Source of the DNA: a virus
Taxonomy: Duplodnaviria; Heunggongvirae; Uroviricota; Caudoviricetes
IMG/VR virus record: IMGVR_UViG_3300029745_000183
Coordinates: 1 to 7,267 of that record
DNA length: 7,267 bases
Reading direction: 5' to 3' (one strand)
The notes below the pieces were generated by a model that worked only from the letters and a program-made list of their open reading frames with translations, was not told where the DNA came from and did not search any database. Position numbers and translations under genes: made by a program. Below, in pieces: positions 1 through 6,993 of the stretch; position 1 is the stretch's first letter, and every line of letters starts with the position of its first letter.

Positions 1-192
1 GTGACGCGAAAAGATGCCTGGTACTTTGCCAACTATGACCCGCGTATGAAGCGTGAAGGCCTGCATTATGTCGTGGTTGAGCGGGATGAAAAGTACATGG
101 CGAATTTTGACGAGATGGTGCCGGAGTTCATCGAAAAAATGGACGAGGCACTGGCTGAAATTGGTTTTGTATTTGGGGAGCAATGGCGATGA
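1..192 (+). CDS. 3' end (63 codons) of an unidentified protein, probably truncated at the window edge
   Basis: Frame is open from base 1 to TGA at 190-192. The first codon is GTG at the window edge, so the real start is most likely upstream. The stop overlaps the ATG of the next ORF (ATGA at 189-192). No motif I can assign. Confidence 0.5.
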
Positions 193-347
193 CGCATCCT
201 CACGATAATATCCGGGTAGGCGCGATCACTTTCGTCTACTCCATTACAAAGCGAGGCTGGGTATTTCCCGGCCTTTCTGTTATCAGAAATCCACTGAAAG
301 CACAGCGGCTGGCTGAGAAGATAAATAACAAACAGGAGGATATATGA
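189..347 (+). CDS. Hypothetical small protein (52 aa), translationally coupled on both sides
   Basis: ATG at 189 overlaps the upstream stop (ATGA) and its TGA at 345-347 overlaps the ATG of the DGQHR gene (ATGA). GGGGAG sits 9 nt upstream of the ATG. It is below the 60-aa cutoff of the supplied ORF track. No recognisable domain. Confidence 0.3.
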
Positions 348-1408
348 GTCAGGTTGGTAATCATTCATTCGAATTTCCGGCATCGCAAGGTGTACAGGGT
401 GGTACTGTTACACTCTTCCTTACCATACCAGGAAGATCGCTGGCTCGTTTCCTCGCTTCAGATAATTACGGCCATACACTGGAACGCTCTCAGCGAGAAA
501 TTAATCCAAATCGAGTACGAAAATTTTTAAATTATCTCACTAACGCAGACTCAAGAAATGAGCCTTTTATCATTCCCCCTCTCGTAGGTAACTGTGATTC
601 GAATATAGAATTTGTACCGTTTGGCAACACAAATGTTGGTATAGCCAGAATTCCCCTCGACGCCGAAATAAAACTTTTTGATGGTCAACATCGTGCAGCT
701 GGCATTGAGATATTTTGCCGAAGTTCCCCATCAACGCTCATGGTTCCCATGATGCTTACAATGAATCTGCCGCTAAAAACCCGGCAGCAGTTCTTTTCGG
801 ACATAAATAACAACGTTTCTAAGCCATCAGCGACCATCAATATGGCGTATAACGGCCGGGATGATATTGCTCAGGGAATGATATCCTTCCTGACCCAACA
901 TACTGTATTTGCCGATATAACCGATTTTGAACACAACGTAGTGCCATTAAAAAGTAATATGTGGGTGAGTTTCAAGGCACTCACTGATGCAACGTCAAAG
1001 TTCGCTAGGAACGGCAATCAACAACTTGAAATGGGATATATAGAATCTGTCTGGGAGGCATGGATTACACTAACTCAGATTGACTCAATCCGACATGGTG
1101 TACACCACGCTACGTACAAGCGCGATTATATTCAGTTCCATGGAGTAATGATTAACGCTTTCGGTTTTGCGGTTCAACAGATGATGGTTAATCATTCCAT
1201 CGCAGAAATAACTTCTATGATCGAAAAACTATGTGCAACTACCAGCTCTGCAGAAAGAGAGGATTTTTTTCTGATGGATAACTGGGCGGGGATCTGCACG
1301 AAAGCCAGCCAGGAAAAACTATCTGTTATTGCCAATGTGGCAGCGCAGAAAGCAGCAGCAAACAGACTGATACAAGCTTTTACCAAAGGAAGTCTGGAAA
1401 CAACTTAA
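344..1408 (+). CDS. DGQHR-domain protein, DndB-like (ParB/Srx-fold superfamily), 354 aa
   Basis: Contains the exact family-defining motif DGQHR (in IKLFDGQHRAAGIEIF), preceded by FIIPPLVGN. Length is in the DndB range. AGGAGG lies 4 nt upstream of ATG 344. No DndC/D/E-like genes follow in the window. Confidence 0.75.
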   Translation: MSQVGNHSFEFPASQGVQGGTVTLFLTIPGRSLARFLASDNYGHTLERSQREINPNRVRKFLNYLTNADSRNEPFIIPPLVGNCDSNIEFVPFGNTNVGIARIPLDAEIKLFDGQHRAAGIEIFCRSSPSTLMVPMMLTMNLPLKTRQQFFSDINNNVSKPSATINMAYNGRDDIAQGMISFLTQHTVFADITDFEHNVVPLKSNMWVSFKALTDATSKFARNGNQQLEMGYIESVWEAWITLTQIDSIRHGVHHATYKRDYIQFHGVMINAFGFAVQQMMVNHSIAEITSMIEKLCATTSSAEREDFFLMDNWAGICTKASQEKLSVIANVAAQKAAANRLIQAFTKGSLETT

Positions 1409-1485
1409 TGAATCAACATTGTCTCATATCAGCATGCTGTACGGCGTCTTTAAGGAACGGTGAGCATGAAAAACAAAATCATCAT

Positions 1486-1512
1486 GGAGCTACAGGCTCC
1501 TTTTTTATTATT
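1486..1512 (+). terminator. Candidate intrinsic terminator downstream of the DGQHR gene
   Basis: GGAGC-tacag-GCTCC hairpin (5-bp stem) followed directly by TTTTTTATTATT. The stem is short, so this is weak to moderate. Confidence 0.35.
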
Positions 1513-1561
1513 CGCATTCACCCTCAAGCGTATTAACCAACAATTCAGGGATTAATGAAAG

Positions 1562-1780
1562 ATGGCAGACATCATTGATTCAGCATCAGAAATTGAAGAA
1601 TTACAGCGCAACACAGCAATAAAAATGCGCCGCCTGAACCACCAGGCTATATCTGCCACTCATTGTTGTGAGTGTGGCGATCCGATAGATGAACGAAGAC
1701 GCCTGGCCGTTCAGGGTTGTCGGACTTGTGCAAGTTGCCAGGAGGAGATCGAACTTAAGAACAAACAATGGGGACTGTGA
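1562..1780 (+). CDS. TraR/DksA-family C4-type zinc-finger protein (72 aa)
   Basis: Small protein with two Cys pairs (CCEC and CRTCASC) in the spacing typical of the TraR/DksA C4 zinc finger. Homologues are common in lambdoid early regions. Confidence 0.7.
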   Translation: MADIIDSASEIEELQRNTAIKMRRLNHQAISATHCCECGDPIDERRRLAVQGCRTCASCQEEIELKNKQWGL

Positions 1781-1827
1781 TGGCTTCAAAGCAGCAAATT
1801 TCAACATCGTCCAACTGAGGTGTAAAA

Positions 1828-2067
1828 ATGTTCAGAATCATTTTTCCTAACACCTGGTACGTCGACCACCACGGCACTCCCTGCAAAATCCTGCGTTCTA
1901 CCCACAACAAAGTTCACTACATCCGAAAAGGCAGAACATGTATCGCCAGCATGTTCCGCTTTAATCATGACTTTGAACCTGTGAATAAAGCTGATGCAGA
2001 TCGGATAGCAGAAGAGATCGAAACGGCAGAACACATTAAGAAGTTACGTGCCATACGCAGGAAATAG
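1828..2067 (+). CDS. Hypothetical phage protein (79 aa)
   Basis: ORF with a good SD (GAGGTG, 7-nt spacer), co-oriented with the xis-int operon. No motif recognised. Confidence 0.55.
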   Translation: MFRIIFPNTWYVDHHGTPCKILRSTHNKVHYIRKGRTCIASMFRFNHDFEPVNKADADRIAEEIETAEHIKKLRAIRRK

Positions 2068-2206
2068 AAAAATTGATAAATTCAATACTGCATTACTCAG
2101 CATTAAATTTATCTCTATGACCAGTCAAGAGATGTACCTGCCATGAGCTTAATATCATGTCAGATATATCGGTCACAAACTCCCTCAGCAGCTAAGAGGA
2201 GGACAA

Positions 2207-2443
2207 ATGTCTCGACTAATCACTTTACAGGACTGGGCTAAAGAAGAATTTGGGGACTTAGCACCAAGTGAGCGAGTTCTGAAAAAATACGCGCAAGGGA
2301 AAATGATGGCCCCACCCGCTATAAAAGTTGGTCGCTACTGGATGATTGACCGAAATTCCCGTTTTGTAGGAACGCTTGCAGAACCGCAACTCCCAATAAA
2401 CGCAAACCCAAAACTCCAACGGATAATCGCTGATGGCTGCTAG
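2207..2443 (+). CDS. xis: Excisionase (lambda Xis-like winged helix)
   Basis: N-terminal ITLQDW and a PPAIKVGRYW segment resemble lambda/HK022 Xis (LTLQEW ... PPPVKDGREY). AAGAGGAGG RBS. The 3' end overlaps the int start by 11 nt, as in lambda. Confidence 0.85.
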   Translation: MSRLITLQDWAKEEFGDLAPSERVLKKYAQGKMMAPPAIKVGRYWMIDRNSRFVGTLAEPQLPINANPKLQRIIADGC

Positions 2444-3575
2444 ACCCCGATCTCACAAAATCTCTATACCCAATTTATATTGCAAATTAGATAAGCGAAC
2501 CGGAAAGGTATATTGGCAATACAAACATCCACTATCCGGTCGTTTTCATAGCTTAGGAACTGATGAGAATGAAGCAAAACAAGTTGCTACTGAAGCAAAT
2601 ACCATTATTGCTGAACAACGTACCAGACAAATATTAAGCGTCAATGAGCGTCTGGAAAGAATGAAAGGCAGGCGCTCAGACATTACGGTGACAGAATGGC
2701 TTGATAAATATATTTCTATCCAGGAGGACAGGCTGCAACATAATGAACTAAGACCCAACTCCTATCGGCAAAAAGGCAAACCCATTCGTCTTTTCCGTGA
2801 GCATTGTGGAATGCAACACCTCAAGGATATTACCGCACTTGATATTGCCGAAATAATTGATGCTGTAAAGGCTGAAGGTCATAACAGGATGGCGCAAGTC
2901 GTGAGAATGGTGTTGATCGACGTCTTCAAAGAAGCACAACACGCAGGACATGTTCCGCCAGGATTTAACCCTGCGCAGGCAACAAAACAACCGCGAAATC
3001 GAGTAAACCGCCAAAGATTGTCACTGCTCGAATGGCAGGCAATATTTGAAAGCGTAAGCAGACGGCAGCCCTATTTAAAATGCGGCATGCTACTTGCTCT
3101 TGTTACTGGACAACGTTTAGGCGATATCTGCAATTTGAAATTCTCTGATATATGGGACGACATGTTGCACATTACTCAGGAAAAAACCGGTTCAAAACTT
3201 GCTATTCCGCTTAACCTGAAATGCGATGCTCTGAATATTACCCTTCGTGAAGTTATATCTCAGTGCAGGGATGCTGTTGTTAGTAAATATCTGGTCCATT
3301 ACCGTCACACTACCTCTCAAGCAAACAGAGGAGACCAGGTTTCTGCAAATACTCTGACAACGGCTTTTAAAAAGGCCCGGGAAAAATGTGGCATAAAATG
3401 GGAGCAAGGAACTGCGCCCACATTTCATGAGCAGCGATCTCTCTCAGAACGGTTATATCGGGAACAGGGTCTGGATACGCAAAAGTTGTTAGGCCATAAA
3501 TCCAGAAAAATGACCGACCGATACAATGATGATCGTGGTAAAGACTGGATTATCGTAGATATCAAAACAGCATAG
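2433..3575 (+). CDS. int: Tyrosine recombinase, lambda Int family integrase (380 aa)
   Basis: N-terminus RPRSHKISIPNLY and C-terminal TFHEQRSLSERLY...LLGHKS...RYNDDRG match lambda Int (RRRSHERRDLPPNLY; TFHELRSLSARLY...LLGHKSDTM...YRDDRG), including the catalytic R, HxxR and Y positions. Confidence 0.95.
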   Translation: MAARPRSHKISIPNLYCKLDKRTGKVYWQYKHPLSGRFHSLGTDENEAKQVATEANTIIAEQRTRQILSVNERLERMKGRRSDITVTEWLDKYISIQEDRLQHNELRPNSYRQKGKPIRLFREHCGMQHLKDITALDIAEIIDAVKAEGHNRMAQVVRMVLIDVFKEAQHAGHVPPGFNPAQATKQPRNRVNRQRLSLLEWQAIFESVSRRQPYLKCGMLLALVTGQRLGDICNLKFSDIWDDMLHITQEKTGSKLAIPLNLKCDALNITLREVISQCRDAVVSKYLVHYRHTTSQANRGDQVSANTLTTAFKKAREKCGIKWEQGTAPTFHEQRSLSERLYREQGLDTQKLLGHKSRKMTDRYNDDRGKDWIIVDIKTA

Positions 3576-3585
3576 AAAATAGCCA

Positions 3586-3622
3586 GTTTTGGGGAAGGGT
3601 TTTGGGGAAAGTTTTGGGGAAG
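3586..3622. repeat. Three tandem copies of GTTTTGGGGAA(G/A), period 12-13 bp
   Basis: Direct reading: copies start at 3586, 3599 and 3611, immediately 3' of the int stop codon. Confidence 0.6.
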
Positions 3623-3642
3623 ATTTTACATCATCATAAATC

Positions 3643-3675
3643 AACGGGCGTGTTATACGCCCGTTTCAATATTTA
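3643..3675. terminator. Bidirectional intrinsic terminator shared by int (+) and the icd fragment (-)
   Basis: Perfect 9-bp stem AACGGGCGT / ACGCCCGTT with a 5-nt loop, followed by TTTCAATATTT on the + strand and a U-rich run on the minus strand. It lies 23 nt beyond the icd stop codon. Confidence 0.65.
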
Positions 3676-3688
3676 ACACATGTAGTGA

Positions 3689-3853
3689 TTACATATTCTT
3701 GATGATCGCGTCACCAAACTCTGAACATTTCAGCAGTTTAGCGCCTTCCATCAGACGTTCGAAGTCATAGGTTACAGTCTTCGCGTTGATCGCGCCTTCC
3801 ATACCTTTAACAATCAGGTCTGCGGCTTCAGTCCAACCCATGTGGCGCAGCAT
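3689..3853 (-). pseudogene. icd: 3'-terminal fragment of isocitrate dehydrogenase (last 54 codons plus stop), icdC-like
   Basis: Minus-strand translation gives [54 protein letters not shown], which I recognise as the Icd C-terminus. An in-frame TAA two codons upstream ends the homology at about 3853, so no full-length icd is present. Confidence 0.85.
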
Positions 3854-3911
3854 TAGTTAGATGACTAAATCGTAACTATTTGACATAGCAACATAATTTT
3901 ACTAATTTGCA

Positions 3912-3948
3912 TATAACTCATTAGCCCTTAGCATTTCTATAACTCATT
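3912..3948. repeat. Two exact direct copies of TATAACTCATT, 26 bp apart
   Basis: Direct reading: copies at 3912-3922 and 3938-3948, in the AT-rich arm between the icd homology boundary and the mcrA 3' end. Confidence 0.5.
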
Positions 3949-4040
3949 GATTATAAACATGTGTTTTTGAGTTTTGATAACCATTTTTAGCATAAAAATA
4001 GCAGTTAACATTTGCAGAAGTTAAGATCAGAGAAAAATTT

Positions 4041-4054
4041 TACCCTGTAGGGTA
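4041..4054 (-). terminator. Weak candidate terminator downstream of mcrA
   Basis: TACCC-tgta-GGGTA hairpin about 35 nt past the mcrA stop, followed on the minus strand by AAATTTTTCTC. The stem is only 5 bp. Confidence 0.2.
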
Positions 4055-4086
4055 TTACGTCTTAAATGTGACTTTAATAAATAATT

Positions 4087-4920
4087 TTATTTCTGTAATC
4101 GGTTTATATTAACGTAAAGCATCTCGATTAGTTCTTTTGCATTTTTACTATAGTGCAATTCTCTATGGCAATTCGGACAAAGGGCAACACAGTTATCTGT
4201 TGTATCAGCACCACCTGAAGACAGGGGAATTACATGATGCACTTCCAAATATGGGTTTCCATCATTTAAATAAAACGGAGCATTTTTACCACAGTTTTCA
4301 CATATACCTTTACTTTGCTGTAAAATCCAAGCTTTTACCATCGGGTCTCGGACATAAACTTTTTGTAGTCTTTCTACCTCAACTGGTTTCCTAGAGCCCT
4401 CGGGTTGACTCAACGTTTTCTTAATTAATTTACTAACCCTCATATTCAGAAGCGATTCATCATCTGTAGGCTGTGAAAGCTCTGATAGTTCTCCACGTAT
4501 TATAGACGCCCAAAAACTGTCACTATAAATACCTGGAACATTTATCAATATTCGTTTCGTTCTATTGCCGGAAGGAATTTCCTTTCTCCCCGTACGACTA
4601 AAATAAGCCTGATAACCACACATCTTCAAGCGTATATCGCGGGGGCTATTACCAATCAAAGTAAAATATTCACCAGGATGGATTTTTCTTTCATCCAAAG
4701 AATGCATATGTTTTCTGACTGATGATGACGCCAGATATACTACGACTTGGGATACACCAGAATCAACCAACCGTTCAATGATATAATCAAGAGCGATATT
4801 GTAATCTTTGTTTCTGTCACCCGGCCCCCACGACTCAAGGATTAGACCATAAACACCATCCTCTTCACCTATCGAACACTCAGCTTTCAGTTCAATTCCA
4901 TTATTATCAAAAACATGCAT
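4087..4920 (-). CDS. mcrA: McrA, type IV modified-cytosine-specific restriction endonuclease (HNH), 277 aa
   Basis: Protein begins MHVFDNNGIELKAECSIGEEDGVYGLILESWGPGDRNKDY and ends with the HNH region CENCG...HHVIP...CVALCPNCHRELH. Length and sequence match my recollection of E. coli McrA, which is encoded on e14 next to pin. Confidence 0.93.
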   Translation of the reverse strand: MHVFDNNGIELKAECSIGEEDGVYGLILESWGPGDRNKDYNIALDYIIERLVDSGVSQVVVYLASSSVRKHMHSLDERKIHPGEYFTLIGNSPRDIRLKMCGYQAYFSRTGRKEIPSGNRTKRILINVPGIYSDSFWASIIRGELSELSQPTDDESLLNMRVSKLIKKTLSQPEGSRKPVEVERLQKVYVRDPMVKAWILQQSKGICENCGKNAPFYLNDGNPYLEVHHVIPLSSGGADTTDNCVALCPNCHRELHYSKNAKELIEMLYVNINRLQK

Positions 4921-5026
4921 AATATTAATCTTTAATCAATTTTTCACGACAATACTACTTTTATTGATAAAATTGCAACAAGTTGCTGTTGTTTTACTTT
5001 CTTTTGTACACAAAGTGTCTTTAACT

Positions 5027-5581
5027 TTATTTATCCCCTGCAGGAAACCTCTTATACAAAGTTGACACACCAACATCATAGATAATCGCCACCTTCTGGC
5101 GAGGAACTCCTGATGCAATTAATCGTCCGGCCTGTTCCCATTGTTCTGGTGTAAGTTTGGGACGACGTCCACCAATTCGTCCCTGTGCGCGAGCAGCTTC
5201 CAGTCCAGCTTTTGTTCTTTCAACAATCAGTTCACGCTCCATTTCAGCCAGGGCACCCATCACATGAAAGAAAAAGCGCCCCATTGGGGTACTGGTATCA
5301 ATTGAATCCGTCAGACTACGAAAGTTGATGCCTCGTTCGCGCAACTCCTCCACCAGCACGACAAGATGCCGCATACTGCGCCCCAGTCGGTCCAGTTTCC
5401 AGACCACCAGCGTATCACCTGCCGATAATGTCCTGAGCAGTTTTTTCAGTCCCGGCCTTTCGGACTTTGTACCGCTTATCTTGTCTTCAAAAATCAGCTC
5501 GCATCCTGCACAGTTCAGCGCATTACGTTGTAGATCTGTGTTCTGGTCATTTGTTGACACACGTACATAGCCAATAAGCAT
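5027..5581 (-). CDS. pin: Pin DNA invertase, serine recombinase of the Gin/Hin/Pin family (184 aa)
   Basis: From the internal Met the protein reads MLIGYVRVSTNDQNTDLQRNAL..., the canonical invertase N-terminus with catalytic Ser in VRVSTNDQ, and has a C-terminal HTH. GGGAG RBS 8 nt upstream of ATG at 5581. The track ORF start at 5617 is an in-frame upstream extension. Confidence 0.93.
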   Translation of the reverse strand: MLIGYVRVSTNDQNTDLQRNALNCAGCELIFEDKISGTKSERPGLKKLLRTLSAGDTLVVWKLDRLGRSMRHLVVLVEELRERGINFRSLTDSIDTSTPMGRFFFHVMGALAEMERELIVERTKAGLEAARAQGRIGGRRPKLTPEQWEQAGRLIASGVPRQKVAIIYDVGVSTLYKRFPAGDK

Positions 5582-5607
5582 GGTAGATCTCCCTGACAAA
5601 AGCAGGA

Positions 5608-6063
5608 ATGATGCCATTTGCTCGTTATTTCTGCATTTTCATAAACGTTGGTTTGGGAGAAGCGGCAAAACGAAATGTGGGGACAGGGGAAAATCAGATA
5701 CCGGACATGGCCTCTTTTGCCAGTGGTGATGGATGGATGAAATTACCCAACGGGAAAATCCTGCAATATGGTCGTGGTGCGATTACGCCGACATTATCGA
5801 CGCAAACAATGAGAATTACATTCAGCATCCCTTTTCCTAAAGAAGTGGACTGCGCCATGCTTACCCATTCTGGTGATGGTGGTGCGCCTTTAGGCGCTGG
5901 ACGGGGATTCGTGATGACTGCAGAAGGTCCAACACTAACCGGTTTTAATTCCGCTTACAGAACTGCATCAACCAGCTCCACAGTAACCTCTATAACTGTA
6001 TTGACGATTTGCAGTGATTGCAGGACGTTACGGGTAGCCTCATCGTTCTGTGGTTTCTGTTAA
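5608..6063 (+). pseudogene. Orphan side-tail-fibre C-terminal fragment (stfE-like), the variable cassette of the Pin inversion module
   Basis: Divergent from pin and reads through the crossover site. The segment [19 protein letters not shown] resembles tail-fibre C-terminal domains. No fibre N-terminal region, no tfa gene, and a Cys-rich, non-protein-like tail ([17 protein letters not shown]). ATG 5608 is probably not a genuine start. Confidence 0.4.
5636..5661. other. Pin/Gin/Hin-type recombination crossover site (pix-like), 26 bp
   Basis: TTTTCATAAACG-TT-GGTTTGGGAGAA: two 12-bp half-sites around a 2-bp core. Reverse complement TTCTCCCAAACC-AA-CGTTTATGAAAA resembles hixL TTCTTGAAAACC-AA-GGTTTTTGATAA. 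Sits 55 bp upstream of the pin start, the expected position. Confidence 0.55.
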
Positions 6064-6068
6064 TCGAT

Positions 6069-6269
6069 TTATCCATTAGATTTTTCATAAAGCTCAGGTT
6101 TAAATGGCAACCGTCCGCAAGTTCTATATGCAGCTTCTGCTGCACGTCCTTTTGGAATTAACTGGCCCGGACGGTTTCGCCACTGATAAACGGCTTCAGT
6201 TGTTATGCCGAAAAAAGCAGCAACTTTCTCAATACTGCCGAAGTAGCTTTCGATATCGTCAGTTGTCAT
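6069..6269 (-). CDS. Cro-like HTH regulator (YdaS/Cro family), 66 aa
   Basis: Small HTH protein (VAAFFGITTEAVYQWRN...IPKGRAAEAAYRTCGRLPFKPELY) transcribed divergently from the CI-like repressor. GGAGGG RBS. Confidence 0.8.
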   Translation of the reverse strand: MTTDDIESYFGSIEKVAAFFGITTEAVYQWRNRPGQLIPKGRAAEAAYRTCGRLPFKPELYEKSNG

Positions 6270-6366
6270 ACGCCCTCCAAACTAAGTTTTATTAGATGCT
6301 AATTACAAATCTATCTTTGGTCAATAAAAACTAAGATTACTTAGCAATTCAAGAAATGGTGCTCCT
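6270..6366. promoter_or_regulatory. Divergent promoter/operator region between the cro-like and cI-like genes
   Basis: 97-bp AT-rich intergenic region. Two inverted repeats of form CTAAG-N4-(C/A)TTAG at 6282-6295 and 6331-6344. Minus-strand sigma70-like elements TTGACC (6319-6324) and TAGCAT (6296-6301) with a 17-bp spacer, a candidate pR for the cro-like gene. Confidence 0.55.
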
Positions 6367-6993
6367 ATGGAAACGGTTGGTCAGCGTATAAAAGCTCTGA
6401 GAAGAGTTACCGGAACGTCCCAGAAAGAATTGGGTAAATTTTGTGGAGTAAGCGACGTTGCTGTGGGGTACTGGGAGAAAGACATCAATACCCCTGGTGG
6501 GGAGGCACTTTCGAAATTAGCGAAGTTCTTCAATACGTCAATAGATTACATTCTTTATGGTGCTGAGTTTGAAGGCAAACTCGTCACAAACATGCGCAGA
6601 GTTCCTGTAATATCGTGGGTTCAGGCTGGGCAGTTTACTGAGTGCAGGGCAGCAGAAGTGTTTAGTGAAGTGGACAAGTGGGTAGATACATCATTAAAGA
6701 TTGGTGATAACTCATTTGCATTAGAGGTTAAAGGTGACTCCATGACTAACCCTAATGGCCTCCCAACAATACCAGAAGGCGCAACAGTGATTGTAGATCC
6801 AGATGCAGAACCTCGTCATGGAAAAATAGTCATCGCTCGACTTGATGGAACAAACGAAGCTACAGTAAAAAAATTAGTCATCGATGGCCCTCAAAAGTTT
6901 TTAGTGCCATTAAATCCTCGGTATCCCAACATCCCTATCAATGGTAATTGCCTTATCATTGGTGTAGTCAAAGGAGTTCAATACGAACTCTAA
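6367..6993 (+). CDS. CI-like prophage repressor: N-terminal XRE HTH plus C-terminal S24 (LexA-like) autopeptidase domain, 208 aa
   Basis: HTH at the N-terminus (QKELGKFCGVSDVAVGYWE). Ala-Gly cleavage-site candidate in WVQAGQF. Catalytic Ser in KGDSM and Lys in ATVKKL, as in LexA and lambda CI. Confidence 0.88.
   Translation: METVGQRIKALRRVTGTSQKELGKFCGVSDVAVGYWEKDINTPGGEALSKLAKFFNTSIDYILYGAEFEGKLVTNMRRVPVISWVQAGQFTECRAAEVFSEVDKWVDTSLKIGDNSFALEVKGDSMTNPNGLPTIPEGATVIVDPDAEPRHGKIVIARLDGTNEATVKKLVIDGPQKFLVPLNPRYPNIPINGNCLIIGVVKGVQYEL

Follow-up and report, generated by a model that had tools for sequence, protein, structure and literature searches.

A probable compound deletion scar in the Pin inversion module of an e14-family prophage remnant at icd

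The P-inversion region of prophage e14 from E. coli K-12 comprises pinE, stfE, tfaE, tfaP and stfP and includes an invertible P segment of 1797 bp. Inversion of this segment creates StfE2, a protein that combines the pin-proximal leader with the gp53-like end of StfP (PMC12529663). When it is produced, StfE2 blocks the adsorption of T2 and other phages (Kirigo et al. 2025, PMC12529663); in view of this phenotype, a 'silent cassette' is not a safe assumption for the e14 family. Deletion of stfP or stfE in K-12 takes out one inverted repeat and ends the effect of inversion, and the e14 segment is inverted by PinQ, PinR and PinE, the last of which also inverts the Mu G segment and the Salmonella H segment (PMC12529663). 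K-12 e14 is also a textbook case of the 'grounded' prophages, which have undergone large internal deletions and in which the ends carrying the integrase, the immunity region and defence cargo stay (PMC6379469). In G47-1, K-12 and LZSFT34, which harbour intact relatives of the module described here, two inverted crossover sites (pix) lie 1.8-1.9 kb apart (1,797 bp in K-12) and the segment between them contains two variable stf ends and two tfa genes. In the known inversion systems, a Fis-dependent recombinational enhancer is located in cis, inside the 5' part of the invertase gene.

The window, that is the whole stretch of 7,267 nucleotides that was analysed, consists of two prophage elements in tandem at icd, as judged from the ORF listing and Pfam. 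Its features are as follows.

1-3575: prophage arm encoding a DndB-like protein, a TraR-type zinc finger protein, DUF4222, an excisionase and a lambda-type integrase (Pfam)
3689-3853, minus strand: icd 3' fragment (icdC-like; a 54-aa ORF corresponding to the Icd C-terminus; ORF listing)
4087-4920, minus strand: mcrA, type IV methyl-directed HNH restriction enzyme (Pfam HNH; PADLOC mREase_IV, E = 6.5e-203)
5027-5581, minus strand: pinE, serine DNA invertase of 184 aa, intact (Pfam Resolvase and HTH_7; PHROG DNA invertase, E = 1.6e-97)
5608/5611-6063, plus strand: gp53-like tail-fibre fusion ORF (Pfam Gp53-like_C)
5611-5985, plus strand: native part of the cassette, with a short leader, pix and a gp53-like receptor-binding domain (alignment to LZSFT34 and other alleles)
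5636-5661, no strand: pin-proximal crossover site pix (identity to K-12 and consensus match)
5984-5985, no strand: junction J1, cassette/spanin (three-way alignment; 2-bp microhomology TA)
5984-6036, minus strand: spanin island of 53 bp (100% match to CRE1493 locus L003, 14001-14053)
5986-6063, plus strand: scar-encoded tail of the fusion ORF, 25 residues and then the stop (translation and alignment to intact cassettes)
6030-6036, no strand: junction J2, spanin/ymfL start region (three-way alignment; 6-of-7 microhomology ACGG[G/T]TA)
6037-6068, minus strand: native cro-ymfL spacer, retained (identity to ML35, CRE1493 and K-12)
6069-6269, minus strand: cro-like gene of the immunity region, 66 aa (Pfam P22_Cro; Cro/CI family regulator in the ML35 annotation)
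6367-6993, plus strand: cI-like repressor of the LexA/S24 type, 208 aa (Pfam HTH_3 and Peptidase_S24; PHROG transcriptional repressor)

The icdC-like fragment is the right end of an e14-family remnant and marks its boundary with the second prophage, whose integrase end lies at 3575. Taken in reverse, the window has the gene order of K-12 e14 (cI, cro, scar, stf', pinE, mcrA, icd'), and McrA, a cargo at the right end of the prophage, is 100% identical to its K-12 counterpart. Over its 7,267 bases the window is 100% identical to contig L005 (assembly GCA_052411635.1), which beyond the window carries the early genes of the remnant, xis, int, a gene for a 775-aa NB-ARC/TPR protein and then full-length icd. 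The two icd repeat copies are 11.0 kb apart in L005 and share 87% identity. An icd 3' fragment at 3689-3853 thus faces a full-length icd at the far end, with the stf cassette, pinE and mcrA on the right arm and int, xis and cI/cro on the left arm: the element is an 11-kb e14-family remnant in icd, in tandem with a second prophage. Defence genes surround the fusion ORF, as mcrA is adjacent and the NB-ARC protein is encoded at the other end of the remnant. Rfam gave no match anywhere in the window.

PinE of the window differs from K-12 PinE by four substitutions, T129A, A149E, A157S and T159V (180/184 residues identical). It possesses both the resolvase catalytic domain (Pfam Resolvase, E = 1.8e-51) and the C-terminal HTH (HTH_7) that characterize serine invertases, and its VRVSTNDQ motif includes the catalytic Ser. 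The 5' part of pin is kept, with 95.6% identity to K-12 over 5000-5662. The crossover site at 5636-5661, TTTTCATAAACGTTGGTTTGGGAGAA, is the same as the pin-proximal pix of K-12 e14 and codes for N-V-G-L-G-E, the residues that link the constant part of the tail fibre to its variable part. A prior examination of these letters without database searches (hereafter the sequence-only reading) had retained it as the one good site. It is the only match in the window, at three mismatches or fewer, to the consensus of the invertase family for the 26-bp site, TTNTCNNAAACC-NN-GGTTTNNGANAA (0.01 expected by chance); its half-sites score 17/18, all other positions in the window score less than 13, and 0.06 sites scoring at least 14 are expected in shuffled sequence. 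The same reading had put forward a degraded second site at 5929-5954, a suggestion that has to be abandoned: this segment reaches a half-site score of 9/18 at most in any register, which is chance level, and no 2-bp centre separates its AACC and GGTT halves. Nearly the same sequence is present in the intact cassette of G47-1, where it is plain coding sequence. An inverted-repeat search of 4900-6400 detected no inverted partner of pix, and no second pix site emerged when every 26-mer of the 20-kb loci L005 and L006, which extend 10 kb on either side, was scored against the consensus.

The locus has one crossover site where an inversion switch has two in inverted orientation, and 5582-6068 contains a single truncated cassette and no tfa ORF where alternative tail-fibre C-termini and tfa genes would be expected. 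The proposal that a Pin inversion module had collapsed here by deletion is borne out by the intact relatives, since the two pix, two stf ends and two tfa genes found in them are replaced in the window by one pix and a partial cassette directly followed by the immunity region. Judged by these features, the locus is best viewed as a relic of a Pin switch that lies outside the class of working inversion systems. As inversion requires two inverted sites on the same molecule, the module should no longer be able to switch: the established mechanism of Hin, Gin, Cin and Pin, together with the locked mutants of K-12 (PMC12529663), implies that the switch would be frozen and that inversion would no longer be possible. 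Because invertases of the Pin family cross-react, Pin may act in trans on pix-type sites of other prophages.

The fusion ORF carries a Gp53-like_C domain (Pfam) at residues 45-124 and also matches tail-fibre PHROGs. Alignment to relatives agrees with the sequence-only reading that it does not include the constant N-terminal part of a tail fibre, and the ORF listing likewise reveals no tfa-sized ORF in the pin-cro interval. The lack of a constant N-terminus is normal for the pin-proximal cassette of an intact system; what is abnormal is that the partner site, the tfa genes and the end of the cassette are all missing. Residues 1-125 of the fusion ORF are 99% identical to the 136-aa cassette of LZSFT34, and the DNA of other cassette alleles is 100% identical up to 5985. 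The window therefore retains the native cassette minus its last 11 codons, that is 92% of it. Intact cassettes end with SMNYSWWAVGE, instead of which the window ORF has 25 scar-encoded residues. A frame degenerating into a Cys-rich tail had indeed been noticed, and such a tail is present after residue 125, but it is a read-through of scar DNA: it is the antisense of a spanin fragment and of the ymfL leader, read in the frame of the cassette up to a chance stop. The Gp53-like_C profile is covered from 1 to 76 of its 84 positions in the window, from 1 to 83 in intact copies and from 6 to 84 in K-12 StfP and in the reconstructed StfE2. The lost end of the cassette is conserved even in K-12 StfP, which is only 23% identical and ends with YYYNWIAIGY.

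The same variable end is found in other genomes behind at least five unrelated constant N-terminal parts, which is classical tail-fibre module shuffling, and the joint of these fibres is always N-(L/V)-G-L-G-E, whose residues are coded by the crossover site. Two proteins, P0004 and P0020, bear different foreign C-terminal extensions on the same cassette; truncating scars therefore recur in the cassette module. No promoter-like site was found on the plus strand upstream of the fusion ORF, and AGGA lies 0-3 nt from its ATG codons, a poor spacing for a ribosome-binding site. AlphaFold2 gave a mean pLDDT of 30 for the fusion ORF and 41 for an intact 220-aa tail fibre, with homologues too alike in both sets, and a PDB sequence search with the ORF returned a weak match to the C-terminus of a short tail fibre (E = 0.019). 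The cassette is most likely non-functional, because it has no constant N-terminus, no tfa and no virion to serve and because its predicted receptor-binding domain is incomplete.

The two sides of the pin-cro interval match E. coli genomes separately. The left arm (3636-5976) is 98.3% identical to the icdC-mcrA-pinE-cassette arm of G47-1, and the right arm, from 6030 onwards, is 99.9% identical to the e14-type immunity regions of ML35 and CRE1493. The homology with the immunity region starts within the annotated GTG start codon of ymfL, with its first two bases, and 6035-6055 is also identical to the K-12 sequence located just upstream of ymfL. Between the arms, 5984-6036 corresponds with a 100% match to nucleotides 153-205 of a 393-nt DUF2570 spanin gene belonging to this phage family (14001-14053 of CRE1493 locus L003), whose product matches the PHROG of Rz-like spanins (E = 2.3e-46). 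The 44 bases that separate the two homologous arms are thus not filler. J1 joins the cassette (...CCACAGTA) to the spanin sequence (ACCTCT...) with a shared TA at 5984-5985. J2 joins the spanin sequence (...ACGGGTA) to the sequence upstream of ymfL (GCCTCA...) inside an imperfect 6-of-7 match at 6030-6036. In the intact 37-kb prophages of CRE1493 and LZSFT34, these three pieces follow one another in the same order and with the same orientation. On LZSFT34 the deleted lengths amount to 21,205 bp and 9,033 bp, and on CRE1493 the second deletion amounts to 7,810 bp. No IS remnant was found at the scar.

Mapping the endpoints on intact e14-family prophages, as had been proposed, therefore placed both junctions and modified the picture of a single deletion scar: the loss of the segment up to the immunity region stands, but two junctions flank a 53-bp piece of spanin gene where only one had been assumed. 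The stop codon of the ORF (6061-6063) is 5 bases away from the convergent stop of cro (6069-6071), and no terminator-like site lies between them or elsewhere in 5582-6068 on either strand, in accordance with what had been read from the letters. It does not follow that the scar itself ends 5 bp from cro, as had been claimed, since the last junction (6034-6037) coincides with the ymfL start codon, 33-35 bp from cro, and the native cro-ymfL spacer is retained at 6037-6068. No second site and no intact stf or tfa gene was found in the interval.

The best explanation for these data, to which a probability of about 0.9 can be given, is that 5582-6068 would be the compound deletion scar of an e14-family prophage inserted in icd, produced by ordinary prophage decay. 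The parent would have belonged to a prophage family with lambdoid immunity and early genes, P27-type packaging genes and a contractile tail. Its order would have been int, xis, early genes, cI, cro, ymfL, replication genes, Q, holin, lysozyme and spanin, then terminase, head, tail, baseplate and the constant part of the tail fibre, and finally pix, a variable end and tfa facing tfa and a second variable end, pix, pin and mcrA. A deletion of ~21 kb, with one endpoint 11 codons short of the end of the pin-proximal cassette and the other in the middle of the spanin gene, would have removed the last 11 codons of the cassette, both tfa genes, the other variable end and the distal pix, together with the constant part of the tail fibre and the baseplate, tail, head, terminase and o-spanin genes. 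Another deletion, of ~8-9 kb between the spanin gene and the ymfL start codon, would have taken the rest of the spanin gene, lysozyme, holin, Q, the replication genes and ymfL. As the junctions lie on microhomology and no pix-like sequence is found at them, these deletions would be illegitimate and not mediated by Pin, and would have arisen by slipped or template-switching replication or by end-joining. They could be two microhomology deletions or possibly one complex template-switching event, as no one-junction intermediate was found in 5,426 complete E. coli genomes or in JGI metagenome contigs. The switch would have kept pinE intact, a single pix and 92% of a single silent cassette, whose frame would continue into the scar and end at a chance stop 5 bases from cro.

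Both arms, pin-mcrA and int/immunity, have probably been kept because they are harmless or useful (restriction, immunity), the lysis and killing genes having been purged. A candidate sigma-70-like promoter for cro lies on the minus strand, from 6324 to 6296. Because cro, pin and mcrA are on the same strand and no terminator is predicted between them, transcripts started at this promoter could now extend into pin and mcrA after SOS induction.

At least 20 contigs carry the exact 150-aa fusion ORF; they originate from an NCBI assembly, from ENA metagenome assemblies made with different assemblers and from Logan single-run contigs. Across both junctions, the ten contigs that were compared match the window at 99.96-100% identity. 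The pin-cro interval or either junction is spanned in none of the 5,426 complete E. coli genomes, the exact scar has no match among GTDB representative genomes, and neither J1 nor J2 has any match in JGI metagenome contigs. In an exact protein look-up, the 150-aa form (start at 5611) is on record and the 151-aa form (start at 5608) is absent. The scar is real and belongs to a rare clonal lineage that is absent from the complete-genome set. The compared copies, being 99.96-100% identical, give no signal of selection.

Other origins of the junctions have to be weighed against decay by illegitimate recombination. An assembly artefact or chimera could be suspected from metagenome contig L008, in which the scar is the same but the left flank changes inside pin, so that chimeric or recombinant joins do arise around this repeat-rich region; however, the recovery of the fusion ORF on so many contigs from independent assemblies, with near-perfect identity across the junctions, leaves this idea a negligible probability. 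Since an intact Pin adjoins the scar and serine invertases are known to delete occasionally between directly repeated sites, Pin might itself have made the deletion, either by recombining pix with a pseudo-site or by resolving directly repeated sites. Such an event should have left its junction at the 2-bp centre of pix (5648/5649) with a hybrid site, but J1 and J2 lie 336 bp and ~386 bp away from this centre and pix is unaltered and identical to that of K-12. Moreover, the four parental breakpoints reach scores of 8-10 out of 18 against the site consensus, that is chance level, and plain microhomology of 2-7 bp is found at both junctions, all of which makes an origin by Pin extremely unlikely.

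Two further proposals concern what the locus might still do. The module might work through a distant partner site on the chromosome, for example in another prophage, and thereby give a large inversion. Pin-family invertases do act on one another's sites (PMC12529663), and ~3,000 of the 5,426 E. coli genomes contain sequences similar to the pin-cassette region, at up to 7 places per genome. However, the 10 kb on either side of the site in L005 and L006 contain no second one, every contig recovered displays one identical arrangement across pix, and invertases of this family, which depend on the Fis-bound enhancer and on a defined synapse of supercoiled DNA, become less efficient over very long distances; the proposal seems very unlikely. 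The fusion ORF might also encode a locked-on, StfE2-type protein that would mask a surface receptor and prevent phages from adsorbing, the scar being kept for defence. The layout of leader and gp53-like domain is the same (residues 47-125 in K-12 StfE2, 45-124 in the window), the K-12 protein blocks T2 adsorption when produced (PMC12529663), and the ORF is located among defence genes, with mcrA adjacent and NB-ARC at the far end of the remnant. Against this, the domain is without its last 7-8 profile positions, its conserved end being swapped for 25 unrelated Cys-rich residues, and its variable part is only 23% identical to StfP. Expression signals are also poor (AGGA-ATG spacing of 0-3 nt, no promoter-like site upstream on the plus strand), the near-identity of the compared copies provides no signal of selection, and the random C-terminal fusions seen in P0004 and P0020 from other lineages point to repeated decay. 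A role in defence thus looks quite improbable. A broader scenario would have the deletion freeze a StfE2-type layout, the 150-aa protein being produced constitutively or from the SOS-inducible cro promoter region and masking a receptor, and the orphan Pin switching other prophages in trans. If it were true, the locus would be a natural 'locked-on' derivative of a recombinase-gated defence system, but this scenario has to be regarded as a long shot.

Ordinary prophage decay thus being preferred, the scar would provide a clean example of the decay of a cryptic prophage by microhomology deletions and would carry little wider weight. Lysis, replication and virion genes have been purged, and the integrase, the immunity region, the invertase and the restriction cargo at the ends survive. 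The 150-aa 'gp53-like domain-containing protein' would be an artefact of read-through into the scar, a warning for annotation. The locus also offers a natural parallel to the mutants engineered to keep a single site, in which the P segment of e14 is locked, and such naturally frozen variants could be used as test material, as the tail-fibre cassettes of e14 have recently been tied to phage defence.

Among known systems, K-12 e14 shares with the window the identical pin-proximal pix at the same distance from pin, the leader before pix, the mcrA neighbour and the attachment in icd with a duplicated icd 3' fragment. It differs in that it has retained two pix, two variable ends and two tfa genes and is still capable of inversion, whereas the window has lost the distal pix, both tfa genes, the constant part of stf and the last 11 codons of the cassette. 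The cassette allele beside pin is gp53-like in the window but of the StfE type in K-12 as oriented in the MG1655 reference, and the immunity region of the window is a different allele from that of K-12 e14. The intact e14-family prophages of LZSFT34 and CRE1493 (~37 kb, thrW/proA) contain all the pieces of the window (cI, cro, the start of ymfL, spanin, cassette and pin) in the same order and orientation with 97-100% identity. They differ by holding the 29-30 kb that are missing from the window, by another integration site and by their cargo next to pin, which is a gene for a GIY-YIG protein where the window has mcrA.

The Gin, Cin, Hin and Pin (Din) systems of Mu, P1 and Salmonella similarly have a serine invertase gene beside a 26-bp site that falls where the constant part of the fibre meets the variable one, but they are defined by two inverted sites, of which the window locus has one. 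K-12 StfE2 and the window ORF have in common the pin-proximal leader, the GLGE joint encoded by pix and the Gp53-like_C domain, which occupies residues 47-125 of the reconstructed StfE2, in agreement with PMC12529663. In the window, however, the variable domain is ~23% identical, the C-terminus is truncated with a foreign tail and the ORF is no longer switchable, so that leader and joint are present and the domain behind them is incomplete. Finally, the deletion fusions of K-12 e14 (the chimeric replication/terminase gene ymfN and the pseudogenes beeE and jayE) resemble the scar in that distant phage genes are fused and the ends of the element are kept. Compared with K-12 e14, the window remnant is more eroded (11.0 kb versus 15.2 kb), its deletions have other endpoints, and the inversion module itself has been hit.

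A second prophage lies in tandem with the e14-like remnant at icd. This prophage and two genes discussed with it are given below; L005 is the contig of assembly GCA_052411635.1 that is identical to the window and extends to full-length icd.

Window 1-3853 (L005 4391-8243): second prophage, in tandem with the e14-like remnant at icd
Window 344-1408: DndB-like/DGQHR-domain protein (Pfam DndB 3.8e-46; PADLOC DndB 4.3e-37)
L005 16356-18683, outside the window: 775 aa protein with NB-ARC and TPR domains, between the integrase of the remnant and icd

About 250 complete E. coli genomes have, adjacent to icd, a prophage arm with 100% identity to segment 1-3853 of the window; none of them displays the tandem arrangement at icd. 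The second prophage encodes a lambda-type integrase (2433-3575) that adjoins the duplicated icd fragment, i.e. the end of the e14-like remnant. Just 3' of the integrase stop codon, between this codon and the icd fragment, the 13 nt unit AGTTTTGGGGAAG is present in 3.4 tandem copies (3585-3627), which may be integrase-binding repeats of the arm type belonging to the attachment region. The gene of the DndB-like protein is located in the early region of this prophage and no further dnd gene is visible within the window. As for the NB-ARC/TPR protein, it shows only weak PADLOC matches (PDC-M34B 5.9e-10) and is probably a STAND-type defence cargo carried by the int end, as a counterpart of mcrA at the opposite end.

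The second deletion, which extends from the spanin gene, has its end at 6029-6036, precisely on the GTG annotated as the start codon of ymfL. The entire cro-ymfL spacer, including the ribosome-binding region of ymfL, is retained after this deletion. The position of its end at the start codon is probably a coincidence.

In one metagenome contig, L008 (9700-10649), the same scar as in the window is present, but the pin gene is broken at about codon 44 and fused to a GmrSD/DUF262 island located close to smpB. The arrangement of GmrSD, truncated pin and gp53 cassette is also found in the complete genomes SFE8, c1-17 and ES8 (98% identity). Therefore, L008 is either a recombinant or an assembly chimera, in which case the join runs through the pin-cassette stretch that is shared.

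Two proteins from other genomes, P0004 and P0020 (185 and 157 aa), carry the same gp53-like cassette, each with a different foreign C-terminal extension; these are truncation scars that arose independently in other lineages. The e14-family prophage of strain ML35 (locus L002, 1-3100), whose immunity region matches that of the window best, is itself a different deletion derivative. In this prophage, the replication protein P, YmfQ and one baseplate gene are partial, which shows that the e14 family frequently erodes through internal deletions.
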